Sequence record: NC_052653.1
Reading direction: 5' to 3' (one strand)
Source: Escherichia phage vB_vPM_PD06
DNA length: 64,000 bases
Made by a program: the position numbers and the translations under genes. The notes beneath the pieces were generated by a model. That model was not told the DNA's origin. It saw nothing but the letters and a program-made list of their open reading frames with translations, and did no database searches. Of this stretch, positions 13,624 to 41,746 are shown one piece after another (the first letter of the stretch is position 1; each line of letters opens with the position of its first letter).

Positions 13624-14817
13624 TTACATCTCCTTATTATATACTAATTTGCCACCATGTTGTGTAATAATTTCTTGAAGATTTTCCAAATCAGAAACAC
13701 TTACTGTTTCTGTATAACCGTCTTTCAACTCTCTTTCCGTTAAAATACCAGTTTTTAATTTTTTCTTTATAGCTCTTTCAGCAGCCTTACATTGTTTCAC
13801 TGTGCTAAAATCATATAAACAAATACGCTCCATAAAAAACATATTACAACTATTTTGACTATTTAATCGCCTATCACTATCTTTAGCTATACCAAACTTA
13901 AGAGCCACTATAATATCATTATCTTTAACAATATTAATATATAATTGCTGTTGATTATGACCAGCACACTGTGGACAACCTTGACCGAGGCTTAATAAGT
14001 TATTAGCCCTCCCTGTCTGTTCCCCATGCACAAGACAAAGATATTTAAACTTACCGTGACTTCTAGACGGTTTACCGATCCAACCTACCCAGACATACCC
14101 TTGCCCTTCTACTTCCTTTTTTACCCTATAGGTGATCTGGTCTTCTGTATACCGATAGTTCCCACAACGACACGGAATGCACCCTCGTTTAAGGTTATTT
14201 CCTTCAGAGTAAAATTTACCATCACAAACACCTGCTTGAACATATTCATCATGAGAGCAAACAGGACATTCAACCATCCAGATACTATGCCTGCATCCTT
14301 TACTCCGTGTTCCTGTGTTAGTGAAGATAGTGCCTTCCTTAAATTTCCCTGTAGAAAAGAAATCTGCAATATGTTGATCGTCGGACATTGTTAGTGCCTT
14401 CCTTGTATTCTCCCCCCTACATTGTGGACAACCTCGACCGCCTTTAAATTGATGAATTGCTGTACTTTGCCATCTATTCCCACAATGGCACAACAAATCA
14501 AGTTTTGTTTTATTCCCTTTCCATTCTCCAACGTACCCTAACACCTGATACCCCTTCTTCTGTGCTATCTCTTCCAAGATCGGCAATTCTGTTTCCCATG
14601 TTAACGGCTTCTTACCAGAACAGATAGGACAACTGTTACCGTGCTTGAAATTACTAATACTACAAGTCTTCCATTCATGTTCCTGCCTACAGCGTAGAAT
14701 CATTTTCGTATCACAACCTATAAACGGTTCAACATATCCTAGGATCTCAATCCCTTTATTATTCGCAATAGGTTGACACTCTTCTTTATATTGTTCCCAT
14801 GATTTTGGTGCTGCCAT
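13624..14817 (-). CDS. Multi-zinc-ribbon protein with C-terminal T5orf172-like domain
   Basis: Five CPxC knuckles (SCPICSG, GCPQCRG, ECPVCSH, GCIPCRCG, GCPQCAGH); C-terminal ALKFGIAKDSDRRL resembles T5orf172/GIY-YIG-like. Confidence 0.5.
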   Translation of the reverse strand: MAAPKSWEQYKEECQPIANNKGIEILGYVEPFIGCDTKMILRCRQEHEWKTCSISNFKHGNSCPICSGKKPLTWETELPILEEIAQKKGYQVLGYVGEWKGNKTKLDLLCHCGNRWQSTAIHQFKGGRGCPQCRGENTRKALTMSDDQHIADFFSTGKFKEGTIFTNTGTRSKGCRHSIWMVECPVCSHDEYVQAGVCDGKFYSEGNNLKRGCIPCRCGNYRYTEDQITYRVKKEVEGQGYVWVGWIGKPSRSHGKFKYLCLVHGEQTGRANNLLSLGQGCPQCAGHNQQQLYINIVKDNDIIVALKFGIAKDSDRRLNSQNSCNMFFMERICLYDFSTVKQCKAAERAIKKKLKTGILTERELKDGYTETVSVSDLENLQEIITQHGGKLVYNKEM

Positions 14818-14891
14818 CTACTACTCCTCTTATTAAATCTGGCATTAATGCAAGAAAACCCGCCGAAGCGGGTTTTTATTTGCTGGCTTAC

Positions 14892-16019
14892 TTAAAACAC
14901 ACTTGCCAAAGTTGCACCATTGGTGATAGTTGGTTCCAGAACAATACGGAAAGAATCTTCTGGATTATCACTAAACACAACGATTTTACCGCCTGTAATA
15001 AGATCTGCTTTCATTTTTGTCGCATTCAATGGAATTCGAGCATCTCCTTCATCATCAAAAACCACGTAAGAGCTATTAGCAAGGGCTTCTTTAGAGTCTG
15101 CATCACTTGGAGATGACAAGTACACGTCTAGTGTGCACGAACCACCTAAAAAGATTGCAGGTGTGAAGTTATGCCAACTAGATACCCAGCTAACTTTCTG
15201 AAGTTTCCCATTAATAACAACGCTGCTGATATCCCATTTGTTACCACCACCCAAAGAAACGCCCATCATAGAGATGCATTCTTTAAAGGACAAATCAGGG
15301 TAGAAATTAAGTTCTTCTACTATACCTTGGATCACATCAAAGGACAACTCTAAACTTACATCCCAAAGCCTTTGGAAATTATCAAAGTGTGCTTTGTTAT
15401 CCAGGTTTTTATCTAAATAGTCAATCATAGTTTCTAGTGAGATTTTATCATAATTAAAATTATAAAACACACGACTAGGACGATTTAAAAAGAATTCAGA
15501 GATAAAACCACTGTTTTTAGTCAGAATAAACAGTTTATTACCACTGCCAGTACCATCTAACAAAGTGAGAAGTGCTTCTTGATCTTGTTTCTTCTCATAT
15601 ACTTTATCAAACTCGTCAAAAATAATCACTGCTTTGTCGGTGATCTTGCTAATAAGTTCAATGAAATTAGCATCACTGTAGGCTTGAGTAACCATAATAG
15701 TTGGAATACCTTCTTCTACAAGGTCACGACTAATGAGCTTGGCTAACATAGTTTTACCACTGCCCTTAGTTCCTGTCAGAAGCAAACCTGTATTTTTACC
15801 TTGTGCACTCCGGCGATGGAATGTACGGATAACGTGATTTGCTCGTTTTTCTGTTTCACCATACAGAACATCCGGTACACCTGTTAGATTACCACGGCTT
15901 AAAAAATAATTGCCAAGGGGATCACGACTAACAGTATAGAATCCAGGTGGAAGATAATTAGATTCCACACCCATATCTTTATTTACACTTACAATATCAC
16001 CATAAATCGTGTATTTCAT
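14892..16019 (-). CDS. AAA-type ATPase, paralog A
   Basis: Walker A GTKGSGKT, Walker B IIFDEFDK, LLTLLDG; paralog of 31305-32465. Confidence 0.7.
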   Translation of the reverse strand: MKYTIYGDIVSVNKDMGVESNYLPPGFYTVSRDPLGNYFLSRGNLTGVPDVLYGETEKRANHVIRTFHRRSAQGKNTGLLLTGTKGSGKTMLAKLISRDLVEEGIPTIMVTQAYSDANFIELISKITDKAVIIFDEFDKVYEKKQDQEALLTLLDGTGSGNKLFILTKNSGFISEFFLNRPSRVFYNFNYDKISLETMIDYLDKNLDNKAHFDNFQRLWDVSLELSFDVIQGIVEELNFYPDLSFKECISMMGVSLGGGNKWDISSVVINGKLQKVSWVSSWHNFTPAIFLGGSCTLDVYLSSPSDADSKEALANSSYVVFDDEGDARIPLNATKMKADLITGGKIVVFSDNPEDSFRIVLEPTITNGATLASVF

Positions 16020-16030
16020 TTTAACCCCTT

Positions 16031-16468
16031 TTATTTTTGTTGAGATGAACGAATTAAATCAGCAGCAAATTCAATCAGATACACTTTTGGTGCAATAATG
16101 ATTTTTAGCCAATCAAAATTCGAAAAGAAAATAACAAATCCTAAAAAGAAAAAGAAAGCACAGACAACAAGACCAACAATAGGTAAAGCAGATACTTCAC
16201 CATAGCGATCTCGTGACCACAGGCATTCTTTATCTTTAATTGCTTTTACGAGGTTCCGCACAGCAATAAAAGTAATAAACATAAAGCAAATACTAAAAAG
16301 TTGCCATAAACCTGCGGATACTGCTTTCCACACTAGTAATTGATGGATTACTTCTGGAATTTGTTGTTTTCCAAACTCTACAACATCACTCATTGTTTGA
16401 ATAGTGACGTTAACCATATTCAGAAGTACATCCGTTGCTTTATCTGCAATTGCGTTTGTTTTACTCAT
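16031..16468 (-). CDS. Hypothetical membrane protein (145 aa)
   Basis: Two or three hydrophobic helices. Confidence 0.6.
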   Translation of the reverse strand: MSKTNAIADKATDVLLNMVNVTIQTMSDVVEFGKQQIPEVIHQLLVWKAVSAGLWQLFSICFMFITFIAVRNLVKAIKDKECLWSRDRYGEVSALPIVGLVVCAFFFFLGFVIFFSNFDWLKIIIAPKVYLIEFAADLIRSSQQK

Positions 16469-17960: not shown

Positions 17961-18251
17961 TTATAGTAAAACACGTTTTGCACTGCTTGGTGCATTGTCG
18001 AACATGTTTATCACTTTGTCAAGTTTGTGTATTAACTCGTTCGTAATGTTCCACTCTTTGTATGATCTCCATTGTTTCTTATTCTCACCTACCTGGTGTA
18101 AAACTTTGATTGGTGCATTCAAACGTACATTGCGTTCTTTGTCCTCTTCAAAAGAGGCTAACCATTTTTCGTTATGCCCATGAACAGCAATAATAATGCC
18201 AAAACCATCAAAAGTTTCTGTAATATTCTTAGTTGCTAGTGTGATGTTCAT
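17961..18251 (-). CDS. Hypothetical protein (96 aa)
   Basis: Six-frame ORF; first gene of leftward cassette. Confidence 0.6.
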   Translation of the reverse strand: MNITLATKNITETFDGFGIIIAVHGHNEKWLASFEEDKERNVRLNAPIKVLHQVGENKKQWRSYKEWNITNELIHKLDKVINMFDNAPSSAKRVLL

Positions 18252-28686: not shown

Positions 28687-28716
28687 AAGCCAGCTTAATG
28701 CTGGCTTTTATTTTCC
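28687..28716 (+). terminator. Intrinsic terminator
   Basis: AAGCCAGC-TTAAT-GCTGGCTT then TTATTTTCC. Confidence 0.55.
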
Positions 28717-28727
28717 ACGGAGGATTA

Positions 28728-29585
28728 ATGACCCAAAAACTATATGAGGATGTAATCGGATTCCTCGAACAAACATCCGAAGAATTTACTCGTGAAAATG
28801 CAAACAAACCTGCAATGATTGTTAATACTCACCGAGACTTACTAGCAGGTATCCTAAGCAAGCACATGGCAATGACCCATATTTTACCGGAAGATCTGGC
28901 AGAATGGCATAAAAGCGGGTATGGTCACATTCACGATTTAGATTATTTACTCTCACCTCTAACTAACTGTTGCCTGGTAAATTACCAAGATATGCTTGAG
29001 AACGGTTTCCGTATTGGTAATGCACATATTGAAAAACCAAAATCTATCGGTGTAGCAACTACTGTCCTAACTCAAATTATTCAAGCAGTGGCTTCTAGCC
29101 AATATGGTGGACAAACTTGTGCACATATTGATACTGGGCTTAGTCAATACGTTAAAGCAAGTTTTAATAAAATCTATGCTGATGTTGGTGATTATGATAT
29201 TGCTATGCGTATGGTAGATAAACAGGTGTACGATGCAATGCAAACTTTAATCTACCAGGTGAACACCCTAATGAGTGTAAATGGTCAGTCACCTTTTATA
29301 ACAATTAGTTTAGGTTTGGATACCTCTGCTTTTGGTAGAATGATCACTAAAAACTACCTAATGGTGCACAAACAAGGTTTAGGGAAAGATAGGGTAACTC
29401 CTGTATTTCCTAAAGTTATCTTCTTCTTGGAAGATGGTGTTAACATGAAAGCTGGCGATCCAAACTATGATTTGAAGCAACTGGCAATGGAGTGTTGTGC
29501 TGAACGCATTTATCCTGATTTTATCTCTGTACCTTTAAACAAAGAAGTTACAGGATCTTCAGATGGTCGCGTCACAAGCATGGGT
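28728..29585 (+). CDS. nrdD: Anaerobic ribonucleoside-triphosphate reductase, exon 1
   Basis: ATG at 28728 after GGAGGA RBS; class III RNR N-terminal half; exon ends ...VTSMG at U29585. Confidence 0.8.
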
Positions 29586-29875
29586 AAACTATAACTGCTC
29601 ATGTAAAATCTGCCTAAACGGGGGAACTCTCAACGAGACAATCCCGTGCTAAACGTAACAGAACTCCCAACACAGAAGAAGGGTTATGATTATGAGTTCT
29701 GTTACGAAATGCCTAACGACTAGCTGTGATGAATGTAGCAGCGTAGGGTGTAAGCCTATGACACCCCAAATGGTAGACATGCTTTAAGCATGAAGATATA
29801 GTCTGATCTGCATGGTGACATGCAGCAGCACGTAATGGTGCGAGAGTGGCCTTGCGAACCACTTTGAACATAATG
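29586..29875 (+). mobile_element. Group I self-splicing intron (290 nt, no ORF) in nrdD
   Basis: P1 exon CAUGGGU pairs with internal guide GCUCAUG (29597-29603) with U-G at splice site; P7 GACUA (29718-29722) / UAGUC (29799-29803); S-like AAGATATAGTC; P9 hairpin CTGCATG-GTGA-CATGCAG (29808-29825); terminal G at 29875. Confidence 0.75.
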
Positions 29876-30817
29876 TGTAGAAGTTTCTTGTCATACTATG
29901 CAACAGAGCAAGGTGAAAAATATGATGGTCGTTTCAACTTAGGCGTAGTTTCTTTAAACTTACCTATCATTGCAGCGGAGTCCCGTGAAAAGGGCATCTT
30001 ATTTACTGAACTGTTGGAACAACATATGGAGATGGCGTATAAGGCACATATGCTACGTGTTAACCGTATTAGACATACCAAAGCATCTCAAAACCCTACA
30101 TTGTTTATGGAAGGGGCTTTAGCTCGACTAGAAGCTAATGAAGAGATTGGTAAACTATTTGAAGGTGGTTATGCCTCTATTAGTATCGGTTATGTAGGTT
30201 TAGCAGAAGCTATGGAGATTTTATACCCAAATAACACCAATCCAAAAGCAATGGGTAAAAACATCCTTCAATATATGAAGGATATCTGTTGCACATTTAA
30301 AGAACGTTCTGGTTTAGCTTTTAGTTTGTATGGAACACCAGCAGAATCCTTGTGCTATAAATTTGCCAAAGCGTTAAATGATCGCTACCCTGGTTCTATT
30401 GATCGTGACTACTTGACAAACTCTTTCCATCAACCTGTATGGATGCACACTACCCCGTTCCAAAAATGGGATTATGAGGAAGGTTTTGCACAAATTAGTA
30501 ATGGTGGGAACATAGGTTATGTAGAAACACCGAACCTTAAAAATAACTTGCAAGCACTGGAAACTCTTGTAGATTATGCCTACAATAAAATTCCTTATTT
30601 TGGCGTGAACCAACCTGTAGATCAGTGTTTCAAATGTGGTTTTCATGGTGAATTTAAAGCAACGGCTAAAGGCTTCGAGTGTCCAAGTTGCGGTAATCAT
30701 GAAGAAGAATCCATATCTGTGATCAGAAGAGTGTCAGGATACCTTTCTGCCCCTAACTCTCGCCCTTATAACAAAGGTAAAATGCAAGAGGTACTAGAAA
30801 GGGAGAAACATTTTTGA
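29876..30817 (+). CDS. nrdD: Anaerobic ribonucleoside-triphosphate reductase, exon 2
   Basis: Frame resumes at CRSFLS...DGRFNLGVVSLNLP; C-terminal CxxC zinc site (CFKCGF...CPSCG). Confidence 0.8.
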   Translation, partial: CRSFLSYYATEQGEKYDGRFNLGVVSLNLPIIAAESREKGILFTELLEQHMEMAYKAHMLRVNRIRHTKASQNPTLFMEGALARLEANEEIGKLFEGGYASISIGYVGLAEAMEILYPNNTNPKAMGKNILQYMKDICCTFKERSGLAFSLYGTPAESLCYKFAKALNDRYPGSIDRDYLTNSFHQPVWMHTTPFQKWDYEEGFAQISNGGNIGYVETPNLKNNLQALETLVDYAYNKIPYFGVNQPVDQCFKCGFHGEFKATAKGFECPSCGNHEEESISVIRRVSGYLSAPNSRPYNKGKMQEVLEREKHF

Positions 30818-31284
30818 ATTACGCCGGATATGAACCTGTTGACATGCTCAACGGTGACGGTGTAAGATGCTCTTTGTGGGTGAGCGGTTGTAGCCACGGT
30901 TGCCGTGGCTGCTTTAACCAGAAAGCCTGGTCGTATAATTACGGACAAGAGTTCACTGCTGAAACATTAGATCTTATCTTGGAAGATTTATCTCGACCTT
31001 TCATTAAAGGATTAACAGTTTTAGGTGGTGAACCTCTTGACAAAGAGAACATTGACACTGTAGAGTATGTTCTTGAGAAGGTAAGAGATTGTTTTGGAAA
31101 CAAAAAAGATATTGTCTTATATACAGGATATCTTTTTGAAGAAATTCCAGAGAAAATTAAAAAACTGGTTGACATAGTGATAGATGGTAAGTATGATATG
31201 AATCAACCAACAACGAAACGTTATAGAGGTTCAGATAATCAACGAATGTGGGTTAAGAAAGACAACATTTGGGAATCTGACTAA
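30814..31284 (+). CDS. nrdG: Anaerobic RNR activating protein (radical SAM)
   Basis: NYAGYEPVDMLNGDGVRCSLWVSGCSHGCRGCFNQKAW; TTG start overlapping nrdD stop. Confidence 0.8.
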   Translation: MNYAGYEPVDMLNGDGVRCSLWVSGCSHGCRGCFNQKAWSYNYGQEFTAETLDLILEDLSRPFIKGLTVLGGEPLDKENIDTVEYVLEKVRDCFGNKKDIVLYTGYLFEEIPEKIKKLVDIVIDGKYDMNQPTTKRYRGSDNQRMWVKKDNIWESD

Positions 31285-31304: not shown

Positions 31305-32465
31305 ATGTTTACAGTATTCGGCAATCAAATCTTCCTGCGTCAGAAGTCTGGTACAGATATTGAAGAAATTCCAGCAGGAACTTTTGGTGTAGGTGTTACT
31401 CAAAGTGGCGAGTTCTTCTTGTATCCTAAAAACGATATGGAAGTCCCTTCAGTAACATACGGTGATACTGATGATAAATCAGAACGTATTATCAAGACGT
31501 TCCTTAGCCGCAAAGGTAAAAACACAGGTGTTCTCCTTGAGGGTACGAAAGGTAGTGGTAAAACTTTGCAAGCTAAAATGTTGTCTTCTGCTCTTCGTGA
31601 AATGGGTATTCCTACTATTTCTATCGGTAGTGCTTTTAATGGTGAAGGCTTTATCAACTTTATGTCTAAAATCACACAACCTGTGATGATTATGATCGAT
31701 GAATTTGATAAACTGTATGCTGAAAAAGATGCACAAGATGGTTTGCTTACCCTGCTGGATGGTGTTGGTGGTTATGACAAGCTGTTTGTATTGACTAAAA
31801 ATGATGGTTATGTATCAGAATTTTTGCGTAATCGTCCTAGCCGTATTTTCTACAGTTTTAGCTATAAGAAACTACCTAAAGCTACTATGGATGATTATCT
31901 GGCTAAAAATCTGGAGAACAAAGCCTTCTTGCCAGATTTTGAAACGCTTTATAATCTTTCTGTGGACTTGAACTTTGATATTGTTCAGTCATTAGTAGAA
32001 GAACTTAACCGTTATCCTAATGACAAATTCTCTGATGCACTTGCATTAATGGGTATCAGTATTACTGAACACGGCTATGCTGCAAAAGAAGTTAAACTTC
32101 TGAAAGTTAACGGTGTAGATCGTACAGCAGATGTTTCGTCAGATACCGATATTGACGGTATGACAGCACAAGGTTTGTTTAGCGGTAATCGTTATGTTGT
32201 AGCTGTAGATCATAAGTCAGGAGAAGAGCATCTTCCTGAAATGGAAGGGATTGTTACCGTAGAAGATAAAGATGAAGAAGGTGACTACTACTGGGGTGTA
32301 GACCGTATCTTGCTAACGTATGATGAAAAACACATTCGTACAATGGGTGGTGACGGTTATCACTTTATGTTCACCGATGATAAAGGTAACAACATTGAAG
32401 TTGTTATTAAAAACAAAGAACGTAAAAACTACACAGAGTATGTGTTTGGTGGTCGTTCTTACTAA
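31305..32465 (+). CDS. AAA-type ATPase, paralog B
   Basis: Walker A GTKGSGKT, Walker B IMIDEFDK, LLTLLDG; paralog of 14892-16019. Confidence 0.7.
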   Translation: MFTVFGNQIFLRQKSGTDIEEIPAGTFGVGVTQSGEFFLYPKNDMEVPSVTYGDTDDKSERIIKTFLSRKGKNTGVLLEGTKGSGKTLQAKMLSSALREMGIPTISIGSAFNGEGFINFMSKITQPVMIMIDEFDKLYAEKDAQDGLLTLLDGVGGYDKLFVLTKNDGYVSEFLRNRPSRIFYSFSYKKLPKATMDDYLAKNLENKAFLPDFETLYNLSVDLNFDIVQSLVEELNRYPNDKFSDALALMGISITEHGYAAKEVKLLKVNGVDRTADVSSDTDIDGMTAQGLFSGNRYVVAVDHKSGEEHLPEMEGIVTVEDKDEEGDYYWGVDRILLTYDEKHIRTMGGDGYHFMFTDDKGNNIEVVIKNKERKNYTEYVFGGRSY

Positions 32466-32471
32466 GTGATA

Positions 32472-32497
32472 AAAGGAGGCGAAAGCCTCCTTTATTT
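32472..32497 (+). terminator. Intrinsic terminator (GNRA loop)
   Basis: GGAGGC-GAAA-GCCTCC then TTTATTT. Confidence 0.6.
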
Positions 32498-32511
32498 ATA
32501 TGGAGGGTATT

Positions 32512-32703
32512 ATGGATCATTATTTTGTTTTTAAAGATAAAGTTGATACAGCAGGTGGTCACGTTGCTAAAAATGATCGTGACATTAAAGAAGTATTAGG
32601 AGATCTGATTAACATTTTAGAACAAAAAGAGTTGCTTTTAGATAAGGATATTGCTAGACTTCTTGGTGTGGGGACAAGTGATATACAAAGATTACCATTC
32701 TAA
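32512..32703 (+). CDS. Hypothetical protein (63 aa)
   Basis: Second in-frame ATG with GGAGGG RBS. Confidence 0.5.
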   Translation: MDHYFVFKDKVDTAGGHVAKNDRDIKEVLGDLINILEQKELLLDKDIARLLGVGTSDIQRLPF

Positions 32704-32714
32704 AGGGGAAGAAA

Positions 32715-32870
32715 ATGCTTACAGATGATGAATATAAAGCTATCCAGGAAAAACTAACGGAGCTTGAAACTCTTGCTGCAAATCTTAAAGATCAATCACA
32801 TGCTGGAAAGTTACTACGTCAAGAGATTAATAAAATTAAGCAGATGATATTCTTTTGGACGGAGGATTAA
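32715..32870 (+). CDS. Small hypothetical protein (51 aa; not in ORF track)
   Basis: ATG after AAAGGGGAAGAAA; MLTDDEYKAIQEKLTELETLAANLKDQ... Confidence 0.4.
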   Translation: MLTDDEYKAIQEKLTELETLAANLKDQSHAGKLLRQEINKIKQMIFFWTED

Positions 32871-32872
32871 AA

Positions 32873-33529
32873 ATGACTGTTAAGCATATTTCTTTTGATG
32901 TATGGAATACTCTTATTACTGCTAATCCTTTGTATGCAGAAGAACGCAACAAGGTTATTGCCGAGTATACCTCTTGTTCTGAGGCAGAAGCAGCTACCGT
33001 ATATAAAGAGGTAAAAACTCTCCTGGATTTAAAAGCAGAAAAAGGCGTTTGTGGAACGTCTAGGAATGCTTGGGAAACACTTTCTACTCGTTTGAACATT
33101 GATCTTGATAAGGTGGATGGATTAAAAAGAGACTGTTTAGCAATGTTTATAAAACATCCTCCAATATTGAACCCTGAGCTTTGCAAGAAGTTGGAAGAGC
33201 TAAGTTCAACCTATTCTTTGAGTATTAAGAGCAATACTAATTTTGTACCAGGTAGTTTCTTAGCTGTATATTCTGGCTTAACAAAATTACCATTTGACTT
33301 TATGCATTTTTCTGATGAGTTTTGCTTGTGTAAACCAGATCCTAGGTTTTTTAAACTCTCTTTTGATGAAATGGTAACGTTTGATCTCGCACCAGAGGAG
33401 ATTTTACACGTTGGAGATAGTTTGATCTATGATGGAAAAGCTGTTGACATAGGGATGAAGTTCTGTCATATTATTAATCCAGAAGATTTGTTGGCTAAAC
33501 TTAAAAAAGAGGAACTTATTAATGCGTAA
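32873..33529 (+). CDS. HAD-superfamily hydrolase (haloacid-dehalogenase-like)
   Basis: Motif I FDVWNTL (DxYxT-type variant); motif IV VGDSLIYDG. Confidence 0.55.
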   Translation: MTVKHISFDVWNTLITANPLYAEERNKVIAEYTSCSEAEAATVYKEVKTLLDLKAEKGVCGTSRNAWETLSTRLNIDLDKVDGLKRDCLAMFIKHPPILNPELCKKLEELSSTYSLSIKSNTNFVPGSFLAVYSGLTKLPFDFMHFSDEFCLCKPDPRFFKLSFDEMVTFDLAPEEILHVGDSLIYDGKAVDIGMKFCHIINPEDLLAKLKKEELINA

Positions 33530-34379
33530 TCAAATTCAACATTTTGCTAATACTTTTACTAACCTGAAGGAAGCAAAATTTAACATTGCAGATTATTCCA
33601 AACTAAAGTTTGGTAGTAACCAGGCAGCAAAAAGAATGGGACGCATTCTGGCTGAAAGTTTCTTTTCTAAATATGAAGAACGACTAGTAAATGAAAGTTT
33701 TGTTGTTATTCCATCTCCATACAACTATGTGAAAAATGCAGCTACAGTGTTATCTGAACATTTTGTAGATCACCTCAACTACCTAATCTCTATCAAAGGA
33801 GGTAAAGCAGTAGAGTGGGATATCGTTCATCGTAAAGTGAGTTATATCAATGATTATGGATTTCTTAGCAAAGAAGATCGTAAGGCTTTGATCGATGGTG
33901 ACACTTTCTCTATCAATCGTGATTTCTGGGGTAATAAAACTCTGATTTTCATTGATGATGTTAATATTACAGGAACACACGAAGAAAAACTTATTGAAAT
34001 TTTAGACAAAGAAGGTGTTGAAAACGATACGTTTTTCCTGTACTTTGCAAAGTATGAAGGTACAGAAGCCAACACCGAAGCTGCGCTTAACTTCAACTAT
34101 ATCAATAACTTGGCAGCTTTTATTAAAATGATTAAGCAAGAAACTGATGCTAAATGTTTGGTTCGTCCTATTAAGTATCTAATGAGTCAAAGCGAAGTTG
34201 ATTTTAAAATTGCACTTTCACAACTTCCTTTGTATTATGTAGAACAACTGTTCTTTGGTTGCCTTGCAGAAGGTTACAATAATATTGAAAAATACAAAGA
34301 GAACTTTGATTTCCTGCGTCAATTTTTTGAAAGCAACATTATCAACAAATCTAATGTTAAAGGGGATTATTATGTCTAA
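33522..34379 (+). CDS. Phosphoribosyltransferase-like protein
   Basis: PRTase signature TLIFIDDVNITGTHEE. Confidence 0.55.
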   Translation: MRNQIQHFANTFTNLKEAKFNIADYSKLKFGSNQAAKRMGRILAESFFSKYEERLVNESFVVIPSPYNYVKNAATVLSEHFVDHLNYLISIKGGKAVEWDIVHRKVSYINDYGFLSKEDRKALIDGDTFSINRDFWGNKTLIFIDDVNITGTHEEKLIEILDKEGVENDTFFLYFAKYEGTEANTEAALNFNYINNLAAFIKMIKQETDAKCLVRPIKYLMSQSEVDFKIALSQLPLYYVEQLFFGCLAEGYNNIEKYKENFDFLRQFFESNIINKSNVKGDYYV

Positions 34380-35088
34380 TAAAGTGACGACTTTCGGAGA
34401 TCCTATCACCAATATTACAGAAAAAGATTTTGGGCGTGTAGCAACAGATAAAGATGGTGTCTTAAGAATTCGTGTACAAGGCATTACAGCACAGGATGAA
34501 TATGCTGTGTATGTTTCAGGTCTTAATTATATTGATGATCGCATTACACAAAACTTTGCACTGATCGGTGGTGTAGAGAAAATGTACTGGGAAGATGAAA
34601 TTGTAACAAGTTATCCAGCAGGTATCATTGAGGTACACGGTGATCTTTTAGCAGCAGCCGAGAGAGGCGATATAGACGCTATAGCACACTGCTGTAACTG
34701 TTTTTGCACTATGGGTAGTGGTATTGCACCAAAAATTAAAAGCAAGTGGCCTGGTGCGTTTAAAGCAGATTGTGCCACTAAGCGTGGTGATTATAAAAAA
34801 TTAGGTACGTTTACTAAGTATACAGAAAACAATTTGACAATTTATAATTTATATGGACAATATGGTTATAGTCGTCGTGAGGAAGGTAAGCGTGACCTGA
34901 ATTATGAAGCTATCTACAATGCGTTAGATAGTATGGGAGACGATGTTGTATCTTCAGGCGGTAAAATTGTAGGTTTACCAATGCTTGGTTGTGGTTTGGC
35001 TGGAGGTTCTTGGAATATTGTAAAACTTATGATCGAAGAAACTCTAGTGAACAAAGGTTTAAATGTAATTGTTTACAAACTGAAATAA
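34372..35088 (+). CDS. Macro-domain (ADP-ribose binding/processing) protein
   Basis: GDIDAIAHCCNCFCTMGSGIA aligns with macro consensus DAIVNAANxxLxxGGGV. Confidence 0.55.
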   Translation: MSNKVTTFGDPITNITEKDFGRVATDKDGVLRIRVQGITAQDEYAVYVSGLNYIDDRITQNFALIGGVEKMYWEDEIVTSYPAGIIEVHGDLLAAAERGDIDAIAHCCNCFCTMGSGIAPKIKSKWPGAFKADCATKRGDYKKLGTFTKYTENNLTIYNLYGQYGYSRREEGKRDLNYEAIYNALDSMGDDVVSSGGKIVGLPMLGCGLAGGSWNIVKLMIEETLVNKGLNVIVYKLK

Positions 35089-35097
35089 GGAGAAAGT

Positions 35098-35304
35098 ATG
35101 GCAGGTGTTTTAGCAGTATTAGGTTGTTTTATTGTTGTATTCTTGATTGTGTTAATCCCTAGTTGGCTACTGCTTTTAGCATACAACTATATGATTGACA
35201 TTATCGGTTTAGACTGGCATCATGTTCCTGTAACGTTTTGGAGTGTAGTCTGTGTGACGTTCATTCTTGCGGTACTTCGTGGTATCTTTCAATCTAACAA
35301 ATAA
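35098..35304 (+). CDS. Small membrane protein (68 aa)
   Basis: AAGGAG RBS; two hydrophobic helices. Confidence 0.6.
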   Translation: MAGVLAVLGCFIVVFLIVLIPSWLLLLAYNYMIDIIGLDWHHVPVTFWSVVCVTFILAVLRGIFQSNK

Positions 35305-35318
35305 GAGAGGATCTTTAT

Positions 35319-35567
35319 ATGCGTAAAGTAAATGTTGAAGTGCTTGAAAAATTTAAAAACACTCGTGATTGTACTATTGGTAAGGTTTATGAGGCTATTC
35401 TCCTTGAAGATGGAGATATTGTTCCTGCCCCGTATCACGCCTTTAATGGTCAGGTTAGCAAAGTGGAAGGTGGTCTTGCTGTTTGCTTTATTGATGATGT
35501 AGGTGATGCTGTAGCTTTCCCTATCATTAACAAAGAAGATAAACTTAAAATTACAGAACTGAACTAG
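35319..35567 (+). CDS. Hypothetical protein (82 aa)
   Basis: Six-frame ORF. Confidence 0.6.
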   Translation: MRKVNVEVLEKFKNTRDCTIGKVYEAILLEDGDIVPAPYHAFNGQVSKVEGGLAVCFIDDVGDAVAFPIINKEDKLKITELN

Positions 35568-35644
35568 TTGACTTTCTTTAAAAACAGTTTATAGTATACG
35601 ACATATAGCGGAGGATTGTCCTCCGCATTAAAGAGGAGAAAAGA

Positions 35645-36622
35645 ATGCAACTGGGTTTCCCAATTATTGATGTGGTTGTTTTAGTGGGTATTTTAGTCTT
35701 GTCGATTTGTATTGATTTCTTCGGACACAGAGAAAACAAAGAAATCTCATTTAAATCTGCAATTGGCTGGTCAATTTTCTGGATTGGGGTATCATTAGCC
35801 TACTATGGTTTTGTATACTTCCAACACGGTGCTGATTTCGCGAGCTTGTTCTTGAGTGGGTATGTGTTGGAGAAATCTCTTTCTGTAGATAACTTAGTAG
35901 TATTTGTGGCAGTATTCGCAAGTTTTGGTATTAAAAGCACACACTTGCAACACAAGATTCTACTTTGGGGTATTGCAGGTGCGATTGTCTTCCGAGGTGT
36001 GTTTGTAGCAGTAGGCACTTACTTGTTGAGTTTGGGCTGGTATGTTAATATCTTCTTCGGTGCTGTCATCCTTTTCTGTGCAGCTAAAATGGTATTCGCT
36101 GGAGATAATGACGCAGAAGTTGATTACTCTAAACACTGGGCTACTCGCATTGTTCGTAAGCTGTTCCCTGTATCTGATCAGATGGATGGTGAGAAGTTCT
36201 TCACAATCAAAAATGGTGTTCGTGTAGCAACTCCTGCATTGGTTTGTGTGTTTGTAATGGAAATGGTTGACGTAATCTTTGCAGTAGACTCTGTTCCAGC
36301 AGTAATTGCAGTGACACAAGAACCTCTGCTTGTATTTTCTTCAATGCTGTGTGCAATTTTAGGTCTACGTGCTCTGTTCTTTGTCCTTAGTGTTGCACTG
36401 AAATATTTGGTTCATCTGGAGAAAGCAGTTATCGTAGTCCTGGTATTTGTGGGTGTAAAACTGATGTATCACCCGTTTGCAGAAACTCTGCACGCAAAAG
36501 TGAGTTTCCTGCCAGCACACATTGATCCGACGATCAGTATGTATATTGTGTTAGGTACTCTGGGGCTGGGTGTTATTGCAAGTTTAATCTTCCCTGAAAA
36601 AGAAGACCAGGCTGTTGCTTAA
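35645..36622 (+). CDS. TerC-family integral membrane protein
   Basis: Duplicated TerC motifs EKSLSVDNLVVF and VDVIFAVDSVPAVIAV; multiple TM helices. Confidence 0.75.
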   Translation: MQLGFPIIDVVVLVGILVLSICIDFFGHRENKEISFKSAIGWSIFWIGVSLAYYGFVYFQHGADFASLFLSGYVLEKSLSVDNLVVFVAVFASFGIKSTHLQHKILLWGIAGAIVFRGVFVAVGTYLLSLGWYVNIFFGAVILFCAAKMVFAGDNDAEVDYSKHWATRIVRKLFPVSDQMDGEKFFTIKNGVRVATPALVCVFVMEMVDVIFAVDSVPAVIAVTQEPLLVFSSMLCAILGLRALFFVLSVALKYLVHLEKAVIVVLVFVGVKLMYHPFAETLHAKVSFLPAHIDPTISMYIVLGTLGLGVIASLIFPEKEDQAVA

Positions 36623-36628
36623 TTCATT

Positions 36629-36650
36629 AAGCCCCTTCGGGGGCTTTGTT
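36629..36650 (+). terminator. Intrinsic terminator (UUCG loop)
   Basis: AAGCCCC-TTCG-GGGGCTT then TGTT. Confidence 0.55.
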
Positions 36651-36661
36651 GAGGTGATCTG

Positions 36662-36868
36662 ATGGTGGTTTTACGTGTTCTTTGGATTCTGTTTGAAAAT
36701 ATTTGTTTTGCTTTAGGGTTATTTTGTTTGATTTTTATCTTGACAACATACATTGATAACCATACAATTACTATCAACAGGAACGGAGAACAGATGTATT
36801 GTTTCTCTAGGGATTTTAAAAATTGTGTCGAGACTTTAAATGAGAGGGTTACAAATGAAAAACATTAA
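36662..36868 (+). CDS. Small membrane protein (68 aa)
   Basis: GAGGTG RBS; hydrophobic N-terminus. Confidence 0.5.
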   Translation: MVVLRVLWILFENICFALGLFCLIFILTTYIDNHTITINRNGEQMYCFSRDFKNCVETLNERVTNEKH

Positions 36869-37445
36869 ATCTTTTATTGTTGCAGTTGTTTTAGGTAGTG
36901 CATTGCTGGTAGGTTGTGATGATTCTGAAAATGTACAAAACCAACGTTACCAACAAACACCAAATCAGATGGTAGATGAACAATATGTAAATCAACCTGC
37001 ACCTCAAGTTGTTCAAGCAGCACCTGCACAACCTTCAACAGTTGTTGTGCAAGGAGGCGGTAGTGGTTCTTCTGGTGTAGGTGAATTTGCTACAGGTATG
37101 CTTCTTGGTCATATGTTGAGTGGTAATAGTGGCGGTGGTGGTTATAGAGATGGCGGTAGCAATACAACAATTATTAATAACAACGCTGCTCCTACAACTA
37201 ACAGTAAATCATATACAACACAAAAGCATAGTTTTTATGATAAACAAGGGAATACATATACAACAACTAAACAAAACACAATTAAGCAGCAAAGTGTACA
37301 AACGTATTCACGCCCATCAACAACAAAAGTGAATAGTGATTACTCTGCTCGTAAGTCTTACTCAAGCCCTATTAGCTCTTATAGTAAGTCTTCGAAAAGT
37401 TATTCTTCGTCGAAACGTAGTTTTAGTAGCTCACGTCGTCGTTAA
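36855..37445 (+). CDS. Lipoprotein, Gly/Ser-rich (196 aa)
   Basis: MKNIKSFIVAVVLGSALLVGC with lipobox LVGC. Confidence 0.6.
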   Translation: MKNIKSFIVAVVLGSALLVGCDDSENVQNQRYQQTPNQMVDEQYVNQPAPQVVQAAPAQPSTVVVQGGGSGSSGVGEFATGMLLGHMLSGNSGGGGYRDGGSNTTIINNNAAPTTNSKSYTTQKHSFYDKQGNTYTTTKQNTIKQQSVQTYSRPSTTKVNSDYSARKSYSSPISSYSKSSKSYSSSKRSFSSSRRR

Positions 37446-37480
37446 TAATTTAATACAGATTAAATAAGAAGGAGAAACAG

Positions 37481-38332
37481 ATGAAACTAGAAGTTGGTAA
37501 AGTGTATCGCCTGGAAGGTTGGATCTTTAATCAAGAAATTCTTGAGAAGAATAAAGATGGTTTTGAGTTTGTTGGTACTACCAAAGAAAGTATGCACGAT
37601 GACGAATACTGTAAATTCGTTGGTAAAAATACAGGTCAAGAACAATTTTGCTTTAAAAGCGCAATCGGTGATTATGCTTCTGTAATGCCAACGCCAGAAA
37701 AAACTTCGAAACAATATACTGTCTTTGGTGTAAAACTTGAAGAGCTTGTAGAACACCCACGTTTTGAAGAGTTTAAGGTTGCTGCAATGTGCAAGCATTC
37801 TGAAATTAAGATACATAATTTGTTTGATTTAGAAGATCGGTTTGATATCTTTATGTATGATCGCAGGGGAAAGCATTTTGATGCAACGACTTCAAAATTT
37901 GCTGCAACAGAGGATATTAAAATCCTTGATGTTGATACCTTTCTTGAGAGTGTATCGTTTGTATTCATTCCTAAATACAAAAAACGTAGTGATCATAAAC
38001 GTGTGAAAGGAACTCCTCGTAAAAAACGTACTGTAAACAAAGCAACTTTGCACTTCACTTCTGGTGATAAATATACTCTCAAAGGGTTTGAAAGTGTTTT
38101 GTATGATGCGGGAACGGGTAATATCAAGTTTATCATTAAGGCAACCTACAAAGGTACGGTATTGCACGAAGAGGCTGTTACACTACCTGTATTCGATATC
38201 TCTCGTGTTGAGGTACGGGGTGTTAAAGAGTCCTTCGATCTGGATTTCTTAACCACTAATGCTACTGGTTATGTTAACCTGGAAGCAGATGGAGCATTTA
38301 TTACTACAAATTATTTAGATATGTTTGTTTAA
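37481..38332 (+). CDS. Hypothetical protein (283 aa)
   Basis: AAGGAG RBS. Confidence 0.65.
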   Translation: MKLEVGKVYRLEGWIFNQEILEKNKDGFEFVGTTKESMHDDEYCKFVGKNTGQEQFCFKSAIGDYASVMPTPEKTSKQYTVFGVKLEELVEHPRFEEFKVAAMCKHSEIKIHNLFDLEDRFDIFMYDRRGKHFDATTSKFAATEDIKILDVDTFLESVSFVFIPKYKKRSDHKRVKGTPRKKRTVNKATLHFTSGDKYTLKGFESVLYDAGTGNIKFIIKATYKGTVLHEEAVTLPVFDISRVEVRGVKESFDLDFLTTNATGYVNLEADGAFITTNYLDMFV

Positions 38333-38400
38333 TACTTAATTTGTGTTATGATGGTGGTACAGAGGTATCACCATCTACTAAAGAATATGGAGGAAATTGA

Positions 38401-39504
38401 ATGTCCAGTCCTTTTATCAGTGCCGTAAAAAGCAAACCGTCTGAAACGAGTGTATTCACGGCAACAACAGAAAAAAGTAAGTCTTTGTTTGCTCCAAGTG
38501 CTATGGATGCAAGCCCTGTATATGCCCCTGCTGTTGCACGACCTGTACAAATGCTGCCTCCAATGTCTCGTGAAGAGATTGAACAGGTTGGTGCTGATGC
38601 AGGACTTACTCTTCGTAACCTTAATGCGGAAGTGCTTAAACACCAGCGTTCATCTCAGGGAGATGAAATGAGTGAGCGTTTAACCGCACTTATTAAGCAA
38701 GCAAAGCAACTTGATCCTAATTCTATTAAACAATCTAAAGGTTTAGGTAAGCTAGTTAAGAAAGTATTAGGTATGAAAGAAGATTTGTTTGGAGAATTTG
38801 ACACCATCAATAATCGTATTGAAGGTTTGGTAAAGACACTCCAAACAGACTTGAAAAAAGAAGAAGATTCTTTACGATATCTGCAACGTTTAGAAGAGGC
38901 TATTGCAAAATATGCTCTTAGCTTAAACAGGGATATAGAGCTTCTAACAGCTACTTATGAAAAAGAAGAAGTTCACCTTAATACACTACCTGAAAATGAA
39001 GTAGAAGAGCGTCAACGTACTCGTGATACTATGGATCTGCTTGAAATTCGTATTGCAGACCTGAAAGCCTTGCGTTTACTGTGTGTTCAGATGGGGCCAC
39101 GTGTACAAAGTATGCAGAAAGTATCTGCAAGTTTGATGCGATCAGCCCGTAATATTGTGAATAATGTTATTCCTGCTTACTCTGCAAACTTTTCTATGTA
39201 TATTGAAAGTCTACGCCAGAAGAAAGCAGCCGATACACAGAACAATGTACTGAATGAATTTAATGCTGCTATTGCAATGGGTAGTGATCTGGCTGCACAA
39301 AACCAAATTGAAGCTACACAACTTGCTAATCGTCAAGTATTGGATATTGAGACATTACGTCGCGATCAAGAAAACTTAGTTAAAATGTTGGAAGAAACTA
39401 ATCGGATCAACACTGAAGCCCGTGCTGCTCGTATTGATTACATTCAAGAAGTGCAATCTCTTGAAGATGGTATGATTCAAACTGTTAAACGTGGTCTACT
39501 TTAA
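38401..39504 (+). CDS. TelA-like (toxic anion resistance family) coiled-coil protein
   Basis: About 367 aa, extended coiled-coil, size and pattern resemble TelA/KlaA; GGAGG RBS. Confidence 0.45.
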   Translation: MSSPFISAVKSKPSETSVFTATTEKSKSLFAPSAMDASPVYAPAVARPVQMLPPMSREEIEQVGADAGLTLRNLNAEVLKHQRSSQGDEMSERLTALIKQAKQLDPNSIKQSKGLGKLVKKVLGMKEDLFGEFDTINNRIEGLVKTLQTDLKKEEDSLRYLQRLEEAIAKYALSLNRDIELLTATYEKEEVHLNTLPENEVEERQRTRDTMDLLEIRIADLKALRLLCVQMGPRVQSMQKVSASLMRSARNIVNNVIPAYSANFSMYIESLRQKKAADTQNNVLNEFNAAIAMGSDLAAQNQIEATQLANRQVLDIETLRRDQENLVKMLEETNRINTEARAARIDYIQEVQSLEDGMIQTVKRGLL

Positions 39505-39517
39505 GGAGAAATATATT

Positions 39518-39724
39518 ATGAATATTAAAATTTACAAACTGTCTGGTTCTATGATCGCTGTCCAGTACGACAATGAAGATCGTTATGTTCTCCTCCAGGA
39601 TGCTTGGTTAGATGATCCTAATGTATTTACTGTCCTGCGAGAACTACGTTCTGTCTATACCTATTCTTCTAAAGATGGTTTTGATAGTTCAACGATGGAT
39701 TTGGTAAAAGAGGAGAATGTGTAA
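39518..39724 (+). CDS. Hypothetical protein (68 aa)
   Basis: AAGGAG RBS. Confidence 0.55.
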   Translation: MNIKIYKLSGSMIAVQYDNEDRYVLLQDAWLDDPNVFTVLRELRSVYTYSSKDGFDSSTMDLVKEENV

Positions 39725-39927
39725 TGAATAAAGATATTCACTTAACTCGTGAAGAATTACAAACCATTATGGAAGATGCTTTCATTGATGGTTGGAAACA
39801 ATGTCAAGAGTCAAATTGGTATGATGCCGAAAACTTTTTGTATTATCATATGACTGCACCTGTAGACGAGCCAACACATTCTGAAACAACTTTGGCCTTA
39901 ATTGATCTTAAGGCTGGTGTATTTTAG
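39724..39927 (+). CDS. Hypothetical protein (67 aa)
   Basis: Start overlaps upstream stop. Confidence 0.55.
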   Translation: MNKDIHLTREELQTIMEDAFIDGWKQCQESNWYDAENFLYYHMTAPVDEPTHSETTLALIDLKAGVF

Positions 39928-40011
39928 TTGTAACTATCTCTTTAAACGAGTTACAAAAGATCACCAGAGAGGCTTTCTATTTAGGCTGGAGGGCAGGTAA
40001 AGGAGAAGACA

Positions 40012-40281
40012 GTGCTTAAATTTAATATCAAAGACGATAAATCAGATGAACCTAAATGTTTTGGAGAACTTGACGCAGGTGATACATTCGTATATTATGT
40101 TGCGTATCAAGATTCTGGTTTAGATACGTTCAGAAACTTAGTGTTTATTAAAGTTAATACAAACCAAGCAATGTGTCTGAACGGTTCACAAAGAGGTCAA
40201 CTTAGCTGTATTTCATATGATACAGAAATGGTAGAAGTGGATTTAGAAGTTACTAACATTACACTCAGAAAGGAGAAATAA
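40012..40281 (+). CDS. Hypothetical protein (89 aa; GTG start)
   Basis: GTG after AAAGGAGAAGACA. Confidence 0.55.
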   Translation: MLKFNIKDDKSDEPKCFGELDAGDTFVYYVAYQDSGLDTFRNLVFIKVNTNQAMCLNGSQRGQLSCISYDTEMVEVDLEVTNITLRKEK

Positions 40282-40282
40282 T

Positions 40283-41077
40283 ATGTCCAATAAAATCAGT
40301 CTTAAAAAACGTCAAGAAACTCTTACTGTATCTCTGCGTAAGAAAAAGATTAACGATGTTGTTCTTCGTGTCGGTAGCGCCTTAGATATTTCGGGTAGTA
40401 TGTGTGAGCTGTATCGTGATGGCACTGTTAGTGATTTTGTAGGTAAACTGCTGCCGTTTGGTATGAAGTTTGATGACAATGCACAGATTGACATGTGGGC
40501 TTTCAATAGTTCTTCTTTTGAACTGCCTCCTGCAACGGCTGATGTGTATGATGATTATGTCGGCTCTTGCATGTCTAATGTTTGCATCAACGGTGGTACT
40601 GCTTATGCTCCAGTAATGCAAGAGATCTATGATACATACTTCGGTAGTGTACCTATGAAAAATATTACACGCGAAGTCGTTGAGTATGAAGAAGTCCCGG
40701 CTAAGGGTTTCCTTGCTAAACTAACTGGTAAAAAAGAACTTGTAGAAGTAACACGTACTATTGTAGAACAGGTTGTAGATACTGATGCACAAGTTGATCG
40801 TACTCCTGCAATGATTTTCTTCCAAACTGACGGGGAAAACATGGATACTTCAGCAGTACGTAGCTTACTGAACAAACACCGCAATACGCCTGTTTACTGG
40901 TTTATGGTTGGTGTAGGTAATGCAAACTTTAAATTCCTGAAAGACTTGGCAAAAGAGTACGATAATGTTGATTTTATCGGTATTGCAGATTTGTCCTTGT
41001 CTGATGAAGAACTTTACGATAAACTGTTATCCGAAGAGTTTGGTGAGTGGGTTAAAAAATTCGGAGCAAAAGCGTAA
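40283..41077 (+). CDS. vWA-domain protein (TerY-like) with TerD-like N-terminal strand
   Basis: MIDAS DISGSM, GGTAY, FFQTDGEN; N-terminus ISLKKRQETLTVSLRK. Confidence 0.6.
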   Translation: MSNKISLKKRQETLTVSLRKKKINDVVLRVGSALDISGSMCELYRDGTVSDFVGKLLPFGMKFDDNAQIDMWAFNSSSFELPPATADVYDDYVGSCMSNVCINGGTAYAPVMQEIYDTYFGSVPMKNITREVVEYEEVPAKGFLAKLTGKKELVEVTRTIVEQVVDTDAQVDRTPAMIFFQTDGENMDTSAVRSLLNKHRNTPVYWFMVGVGNANFKFLKDLAKEYDNVDFIGIADLSLSDEELYDKLLSEEFGEWVKKFGAKA

Positions 41078-41084
41078 AAAACGC

Positions 41085-41112
41085 TTGACTTTGTAGAAAA
41101 GATTAGTAAAAT
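41085..41112 (+). promoter_or_regulatory. Sigma70-type promoter
   Basis: TTGACT, 16-bp spacer, TAAAAT. Confidence 0.5.
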
Positions 41113-41149
41113 AGACAACGTAAATTAACAACAAAGGAGATAATAAATT

Positions 41150-41746
41150 ATGACTCAGAAAATTTCCCTGAAAAAAGGTTCTAGCGAAAAAGTTTCTCTG
41201 AAAAAGATCGCACCAGCACTGAAACGCATTCGTCTGGAATTCTCTTGGAAATCTAACGAAAAACTGGATCTGGATGTTAGTGCTCTGATTTGCCGACACA
41301 ATGCATCTGGTCTGCCGGAACTGTTGTCTCCTCGTCACCTGGTGTGCTACGCGCAGAAATTTGATCCTGAACGTTCTACTTTTGCAGGTGAAGATGTTCG
41401 TGATGGTGTAGGACAGATGGAGCAGATTGATGTTACACTGGATAATATCTCTGCTGAAGCACAGGAAATTGCATTCGTAATTACTATTGATGACGAAACG
41501 GGTAAGAAACGCCTTGGTCACGCTACCGAAGGTTTCCTTAAAATCTTCGATGATGAACGTAATGTTGAACTGCTGGACTTTGACTTCTTGGCTCCAGAAC
41601 TTGCAGGTAACACCATTTGCCACGTTGCCTCCCTGGTGCGAGAAGATAGCGAATGGAAACTGAAAGCGTATGGTGTAGGTAAAGCTGGGCTTGACATTTA
41701 CGATGTAGTTAAAGCGTTTGGCGCTGGCGACGATTGGTTCGAGTAA
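41150..41746 (+). CDS. TerD-domain protein
   Basis: MTQKISLKKGSSEKVSLKK...DLDVSAL...FVITIDD...WKLKAYGVG matches TerD layout; own promoter and terminator. Confidence 0.75.
   Translation: MTQKISLKKGSSEKVSLKKIAPALKRIRLEFSWKSNEKLDLDVSALICRHNASGLPELLSPRHLVCYAQKFDPERSTFAGEDVRDGVGQMEQIDVTLDNISAEAQEIAFVITIDDETGKKRLGHATEGFLKIFDDERNVELLDFDFLAPELAGNTICHVASLVREDSEWKLKAYGVGKAGLDIYDVVKAFGAGDDWFE

Follow-up and report, generated by a model that had tools for sequence, protein, structure and literature searches.

Two anciently diverged paralogues of the phage AAA+ ATPase family PHROG 2376 in a phi92-like coliphage, one of them an extra single-gene cassette

AAA+ ATPases of the classic clade (clade 3) can be recognised by a second arginine finger, the lack of sensor 2 and an aromatic pore loop 1, and those of the MoxR clade (clade 7) are marked by an H2 insert, a pre-sensor-1 hairpin and a pre-sensor-2 helical insert (PMC7973254). 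Among phage proteins, PHROG 2376 is a family annotated as 'ATPase', with examples such as Phi92_gp190 and the ATPases of Salmonella phage 7-11, Pectobacterium phage CBB and Enterococcus phage phiEF24C. Here, we describe two members of this family encoded on opposite strands of a 64,000-nucleotide stretch of Escherichia phage vB_vPM_PD06 (NC_052653.1), the whole of which is called the window in the following. Both open reading frames (ORFs) were found at exactly the coordinates given in a preliminary description, which had been made from the DNA letters alone, and they are referred to as ATPase A and ATPase B:

14892..16019, minus strand: ATPase A, 375 amino acids
31305..32465, plus strand: ATPase B, 386 amino acids

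Both proteins belong to one large family of stand-alone AAA+ ATPases carried by phages, within which they are paralogues that diverged long ago. Their pairwise alignment (BLASTP) covered residues 1-256 of both proteins with 119/254 identities (47%) and 70% positives at E = 1e-81. This agrees with the earlier estimate of about half identity in the ATPase region, and it is clearly not the outcome named beforehand as refuting, namely similarity in the Walker motifs only, as between unrelated P-loop proteins. The last approximately 120 residues gave no pairwise match by BLASTP. Taken together with the family profile and the structure models, the alignment supports paralogy over the full length. 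A matched PHROG 2376 with E 7.8e-108 (residues 1-367 on profile positions 1-357 of 363), and B with E 3.4e-104 (residues 1-376 on positions 2-359). Both proteins passed the threshold of Pfam AAA (PF00004), with 38.9 bits for A and 29.4 bits for B, and nothing in NCBIfam came near its curated cutoff for either of them. The defence-system models of PADLOC likewise gave no significant match to A or B, the best one being mad8 (E 9e-4, 16.9 bits). Most of the motifs quoted in the preliminary description, i.e. GTKGSGKT, RPSR, LLTLLDG and TKNxGxxSEFxxNRPSRxFY, are present in both proteins, and two small inaccuracies were found: the Walker B pattern (I/M)IDEFDK does not fit A, which reads VIIFDEFDK, and the block SxxxDxxxxIVxELN is only approximate, the actual stretches being LSFDVIQGIVEELN in A and LNFDIVQSLVEELN in B.

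AlphaFold2 monomer models were built on an alignment of 113 family sequences and reached a predicted local distance difference test score (pLDDT) of 90.9 for A and 89.0 for B. The secondary-structure elements follow each other in matching order in the two models, which consist of a small N-terminal beta domain (residues ~1-45), an AAA+ alpha/beta core, a four-helix lid, a C-terminal beta-rich domain (~260-365) and a low-confidence tail. Full-length structure matches in BFVD come from diverse and distant phages. In window coordinates, with the domain borders taken from the models, the parts are placed as follows:

15870-16019, minus strand: N-terminal beta domain of A
15444-15857, minus strand: AAA+ alpha/beta core of A
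15258-15443, minus strand: helical lid of A
14922-15248, minus strand: C-terminal beta domain of A
14895-14921, minus strand: flexible tail of A, ending in ...ASVF
31305-31451, plus strand: N-terminal beta domain of B
31458-31871, plus strand: AAA+ core of B
31872-32057, plus strand: lid of B
32067-32429, plus strand: C-terminal beta domain of B
32430-32462, plus strand: tail of B, ...YVFGGRSY

All catalytic positions of a classic-clade AAA+ ATPase are preserved in the family. Throughout the 113 sequences, Walker A K89, Walker B D135-E136, sensor-1 N169, R180 and R183 (numbering of A) are invariant. Walker A is the shared GTKGSGKT, Walker B reads VIIFDE in A and MIMIDE in B, sensor 1 is N169 in A and N166 in B, and the two arginines of the RPxR motif (RPSR), R180/R183 in A and R177/R180 in B, are both among the invariant positions. 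No lid arginine is invariant, and the only frequent one (80% of sequences) is Phe in A. The pore-loop column, Y114 in A and F111 in B, holds F, W or Y in 84% of the sequences, and the residue two positions later is Gly in 72% of them, including B. A deletion of pore loop 1, suggested by an alignment with p97, was ruled out by these column statistics, as the aromatic residue is conserved. It can be concluded that A and B carry the protein-remodelling signature of the classic clade with one atypical feature, the beta2-alpha2 link considered below, and the H2, pre-sensor-1 and pre-sensor-2 inserts of MoxR proteins are absent from both models. Searching the PDB with the sequences of A and B gave weak matches of the AAA module only (p97 D2, fidgetin and spastin). 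As a separate observation, residues 201-291 of A (window ~15147-15419) gave weak, repeated PDB matches to the influenza NS1 effector domain (phmmer, E 8e-4 to 5e-3), which are probably due to chance because the stretch runs, in the model, from the helical lid into the beginning of the beta domain.

The C-terminal domains had been described as divergent. They are indeed the most divergent part of A and B, but they are not different domains. Profiles of the C-terminal ~120 residues of A and B alone matched each other with a probability of 15.6%, while both could be joined through a third subgroup of the family (the C-group, P0024-29), with 92% for A against the C-group, 95.6% for B against the C-group and 93.6% for A against B plus C-group. 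The family-wide alignment of this region shows a common strand pattern around a variable acidic insertion, and the PHROG 2376 profile matches end to end. Judged by these profiles, the two C-terminal domains are homologous and represent one and the same fast-evolving domain. Mean pairwise identities reflect the pace of this evolution: 44% in the C-terminal domain versus 76% in the core among A orthologues, 61% versus 91% among B orthologues and 18% versus 52% family-wide. Against the PDB, the profile of the C-terminal domain found nothing significant, the best match being a DARPin (E 0.009). The tail that follows has a pLDDT below 50 in both models. Among 248 family proteins, the last residue is hydrophobic in 83% (Phe in 40%) and the penultimate residue is Ala in 40%, and the B group keeps Y-x-x-Y-A/V-F followed by 2-6 extra residues. 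We speculate that the tail may be a docking motif.

The family itself is very large. Its profile, searched against a library of 1.84 billion representatives, retrieved 3,334 clusters (50% identity) at E <= 1e-30, nearly all of them 350-400 amino acids long and matched end to end, and tblastn located it in 358 phage records of a phage collection. Most of its members come from large virulent phages that infect Gram-negative as well as Gram-positive hosts, including Herelleviridae of Bacillus, Enterococcus and Lactobacillus, Lactococcus 949-like, Salmonella 7-11-like, Proteus and Aeromonas phages and the RaK2/CBB-like jumbo phages. In bacterial assemblies, it occurs mostly on contigs of metagenome-assembled genomes (MAGs) and in regions of Lachnospiraceae and relatives that resemble prophages or integrative and conjugative elements. 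The gene usually stands alone among small early-type or non-structural genes, sometimes close to tRNA genes (phages 7-11, CBB, BCU4 and LW81). When all ORFs around 80 bacterial or MAG loci were clustered, no neighbour conserved across the family was found; the only recurrent ORFs were antisense shadow ORFs and a PcfJ-like gene confined to Lachnospiraceae elements. At a Pseudoflavonifractor capillosus ATCC 29799 locus (L046) and approximately 12 Lachnospiraceae loci, the family member lies in an apparent prophage or conjugative-element region. The neighbours at these Firmicutes loci include a PcfJ-like protein, a sigma-70-like factor, a DNA methylase and a CobT-type vWA protein ~3 kb upstream, and the association is limited to this Firmicutes subgroup and not family-wide.

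By megablast, the window derives from a phi92-like coliphage of the genus Justusliebigvirus (Stephanstirmvirinae). Dozens of deposited genomes (e.g. arall, PHB05, ECGD1 and EmilieFrey) match the A region at 94-99% and the B region at 98-99% identity, and both genes are found at >=95% identity in more than 50 of the genomes deposited. Public phi92-like genomes already include annotated versions of both A and B, with labels that range from 'ATPase' and 'putative ATPase or Zn metalloprotease' to 'FtsH-like protease' and 'hypothetical protein'. The two genes lie on either side of a divergent transcription point near window position 18,000, with A in a leftward block of small genes and B in a rightward block that follows a helicase, tRNA-related genes, nrdD and nrdG. 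As previously described, B directly follows nrdG, and its start lies 20 nt downstream of that gene.

The two copies differ in their distribution. About 57-61 of the 358 records in the phage collection have family members at two places, and all such records seen were of Justusliebigvirus, among them Klebsiella phage FKP3. Phapecoctavirus and the phiWec181 group carry a single copy, which is the A orthologue (64-67% identity) in syntenic position. A is the copy that is syntenic across Stephanstirmvirinae. Phapecoctavirus nieznany has the order nrdD, nrdG, small ORF, HAD, PRTase, phosphatase, TerC, TelA, vWA, with nothing between nrdG and the small ORF. Since this small ORF is the orthologue of the window ORF 32500-32703, which comes after B, the two genera differ at this point by exactly B and its downstream hairpin. 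FKP3 has neither nrdD nor nrdG at this position, yet B is in the same place with the same hairpin. Three candidate signals were noted around the two genes:

32472..32493, plus strand: terminator-like hairpin after B (9-bp stem, GAAA loop, U-rich tract), 7 nt after the B stop, found by a scan
14859..14872, minus strand: terminator-like hairpin after A (CCCGC-UUCG-GCGGG, then UUUUCUU), 20 nt after the A stop
31169..31197, plus strand: sigma-70-like promoter match (TTGACA-17-TATGAT, 11/12) in the 3' end of nrdG, ~108 nt upstream of the B start

The hairpin after B lies between B and the small ORF with the HAD, PRTase and Ter genes. It folds at -16.7 kcal/mol (z = -5.1 versus shuffles), and in FKP3 its stem carries compensatory changes from GGAGGC/GCCUCC to GGGGC/GCCCC. 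The hairpin after A folds at -13.8 kcal/mol (z = -4.4 versus shuffles); it was read from the intergenic sequence and is absent from the list of the consensus scan. The number of sigma-70-like sites in the B region is not above that in shuffles and the site at 31169..31197 is a consensus match only, so that the site is a lead towards a possible promoter of B's own, not evidence for one. With U-rich-tailed hairpins after both A and B and a promoter-like match before B, the latter looks like a self-contained single-gene cassette. The comparison of the genera establishes B as an extra single-gene cassette of Justusliebigvirus that is absent from Phapecoctavirus, i.e. a discrete insertion or deletion.

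How the second copy arose is less clear-cut. In a neighbour-joining tree with 200 bootstraps, the groups A, B and C and the jumbo-phage group were each recovered with 100% support, B and C together with 79-88%, A, B, C and P0030 with 64-68% and this same clade plus the jumbo group with 77-80%. The intragenomic duplication proposed in the preliminary description thus finds moderate support in the clade of A, B, C and P0030, but the core of B is no closer to that of A (47% identity) than to those of the jumbo-phage proteins (also 47%). An old duplication within the phage lineage would be the simplest reading and is moderately supported by the tree; acquisition of B from a related phage is a possible alternative.

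With regards to function, a ring-forming protein remodeller is the best fit to these features. Each of A and B would form a ring in which ATP hydrolysis serves to remodel or unfold protein substrates while the infection is in its non-structural phase. The common machinery would consist of the N-terminal domain and the core, both of which are conserved, and the fast-evolving C-terminal domain, possibly with the tail, would set the specificity for a target or partner. If specificity does reside in the C-terminal domain, A and B would act on different targets, which would explain why two copies are kept. We assign a probability of roughly 0.6 to the reading as a whole, i.e. anciently diverged, stand-alone PHROG 2376 paralogues, with B as an extra cassette, that act as ring-forming remodellers with specificity in the C-terminal domain. 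Several points weigh against it. A has Asp in place of the pore-loop glycine, and pore loop 1 is atypical for the classic clade because the predicted beta2-alpha2 connection is a coil of only ~6 residues (111-116 in A, 108-113 in B) without the extra short helix. Relaxed constraint, and not specificity, could be the reason why the C-terminal domain evolves fast. For A and B, we infer ring assembly, ATPase activity, substrates and the timing of expression alike, and our literature search found no experiment on, or other functional study of, any family member.

A more far-reaching idea, which we consider doubtful, sees in PHROG 2376 a major class of phage machines for host takeover or counter-defence. 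Here, classic-clade remodellers would dismantle host complexes or feed a host peptidase, the C-terminal beta domain would do the targeting, a tail of the type '...A-F' would dock, and two copies would be kept for two targets or for a mixed A/B ring. As part of this idea, the family would be structurally closest to Bcs1 and to Trip13, the regulator of the cyclic oligonucleotide-based antiphage signalling system (CBASS).

Homologues appear as 'putative DNA replication protein' or 'DnaC' in some GenBank and JGI records, and B does lie in a block of nucleotide-metabolism and helicase genes. A role of A and B as replication factors of the helicase-loader, initiator or clamp-loader type nevertheless appears unlikely, slightly more so than the host-takeover idea. 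It is suggested by sub-threshold matches to Hda (E 4e-7), to the DnaC-like PRK08116 and to clamp-loader and DnaC-like PHROG families, but the scores are far below the curated cutoffs, with 29.8 versus 194.8 bits for Hda, 27.5 versus 189 bits for PRK08116 and 19.9 versus 200 bits for IstB. Moreover, the two-arginine RPxR motif without a conserved sensor-2 arginine places A and B in the classic clade and not in clades 1 and 2, the pore-loop aromatic is conserved, and in other phages the ATPase gene showed no conserved association with helicase, polymerase or clamp genes.

Just as improbable as the replication role is a function as Bcs1-like membrane translocases in virion assembly, which has been proposed for 'BCS1 orthologs' of jumbo phages (PMC7824862). 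The preliminary description had rightly noted that A stands beside a membrane protein, as the gene upstream of A encodes two strongly hydrophobic segments:

16031..16468, minus strand: gene upstream of A, two strongly hydrophobic segments

However, this neighbour is not conserved, neither in other phages nor even in Phapecoctavirus. A and B themselves have no hydrophobic segment (maximum 19-residue Kyte-Doolittle mean 1.0) and no BCS1_N match, and thus have neither the N-terminal membrane anchor nor the specific N domain of Bcs1. Their genes lie in regions of small non-structural genes and not in morphogenesis modules. The text of PMC7824862 gives no accession by which its 'BCS1 orthologs' could be linked to PHROG 2376.

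Even less credible is the proposal that A and B are partners of the vWA and Ter proteins, forming an AAA-vWA chaperone pair in the manner of MoxR-vWA and with B at the head of the Ter module. The genes in question follow B on the same strand:

32855-33529, plus strand: HAD hydrolase
33522-34379, plus strand: PRTase_3 (ComF-like)
34372-35088, plus strand: Macro domain protein
35645-36622, plus strand: TerC
38401-39504, plus strand: TelA
40283-41077, plus strand: vWA-TerF-like protein
41150-41746, plus strand: TerD

The vWA protein reported at 40283 was thus recovered, and it lies inside a real Ter-like module. This module (32855-41746) is fairly complete, has the same order in Phapecoctavirus and fits the 'signal synthesis + sensor + membrane' layout of Ter genes in some jumbo phages (PMC7824862). 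In favour of a partnership, B is located between nrdG and the HAD, PRTase, TerC, TelA, vWA-TerF and TerD genes, A has a marginal AAA_5 match (22.4 bits versus a cutoff of 22), and MoxR-vWA pairs occur in some phages (PMC7824862). The distribution of the genes, however, largely refutes it. Phapecoctavirus keeps nrdD-nrdG and the full Ter/vWA module in the same order, with the vWA protein at 66.5% identity, but without B, and in the window a hairpin with U-rich tract separates B from the module; the placement of B at the head of the Ter-like module therefore had to be given up, and with it the suggested AAA-vWA pairing. Matches of the vWA gene also occur in Caulobacter, Brevundimonas, Rhizobium and Pseudomonas phages, which are not among the commonest organism names of the ATPase family, and conversely hundreds of phages with a member of the ATPase family belong to groups that do not appear among the vWA matches (overlap compared by the most frequent organism names, not record by record). 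In addition, the vWA protein is of the TerF type, and the ATPases combine the classic-clade signature with the lack of all inserts that define the MoxR clade. Neither A nor B depends on the Ter/vWA module. Finally, the reading as FtsH-like Zn metalloproteases, a label on many GenBank records, is already refuted at the domain level and practically without chance, as there is no HExxH motif, no transmembrane segment (maximum 19-residue hydropathy mean 1.0) and no Peptidase_M41 match, the PDB contains no sequence relative of the beta-rich C-terminal domain, and only the AAA module resembles FtsH.

Beyond the two ATPases, some observations were made on neighbouring genes and related records. The gene downstream of A (13624-14817, minus strand) encodes 397 amino acids with repeated CxxC zinc-ribbon-like modules and is labelled 'endonuclease' in RefSeq relatives. 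A longer version of 487 amino acids follows the A orthologue in Phapecoctavirus, and no other neighbour of A is conserved in both genera. Upstream of B, nrdD is split by a group I intron (29540-29825, plus strand; Rfam RF00028, 70.4 bits, E 1e-17, full-length model match) between the ORFs 28698-29594 and 29846-30817. The gene is uninterrupted (1.8 kb) in the close relatives PHB05 and EmilieFrey, and in Phapecoctavirus nieznany it is split around a 510-bp ORF. Across A, B and the vWA gene, several records that are named as phages of Campylobacter jejuni (MG065645 'Campylobacter phage A145' and similar) are ~98% identical to the phi92-like E. coli phages, and their host labels are probably wrong.

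The paralogy of A and B is old and, for a 146-kb phage, unremarkable. The main interest lies in the very large size of a phage family annotated as 'ATPase' and its intact catalytic residues, which is a property of the family and not a discovery of this window. A single biochemical or genetic study of PHROG 2376 would annotate thousands of phage genes, and Justusliebigvirus with two copies and Phapecoctavirus with one offer a natural pair for comparison. Two corrections follow for existing annotations: there is no support for calling these genes 'FtsH-like protease / Zn metalloprotease' or 'DNA replication protein', and B should not be counted in the phage Ter module.

For better comparison, A and B can be set beside the known systems they resemble. 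With MoxR-vWA pairs, they share the presence of an AAA+ ATPase and a vWA protein in the same genome; they differ in lacking the three clade 7 inserts, and the vWA protein is TerF-type, is encoded 8 kb away and is kept in relatives without B. With the classic-clade remodellers Bcs1, Trip13/Pch2, NVL/Rix7, NSF-D2, YjoB, Vps4 and spastin, alignment is confined to the AAA module (~200-240 residues, 14-20% identity), the models of A and B show a shortened beta2-alpha2 segment and no extra helix, and their N- and C-terminal beta domains have no detected counterpart. Morons are single-gene phage cassettes with their own promoter and terminator, classically described from temperate phages and often expressed from the prophage. 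B is like them in being a single gene between a promoter-like site and a conserved hairpin, present or absent as a unit amid synteny, but it belongs to a virulent myophage and is a paralogue of a resident phage gene. Compared with the other members of PHROG 2376, A and B share the four-domain build of ~350-400 amino acids and show no difference in kind.

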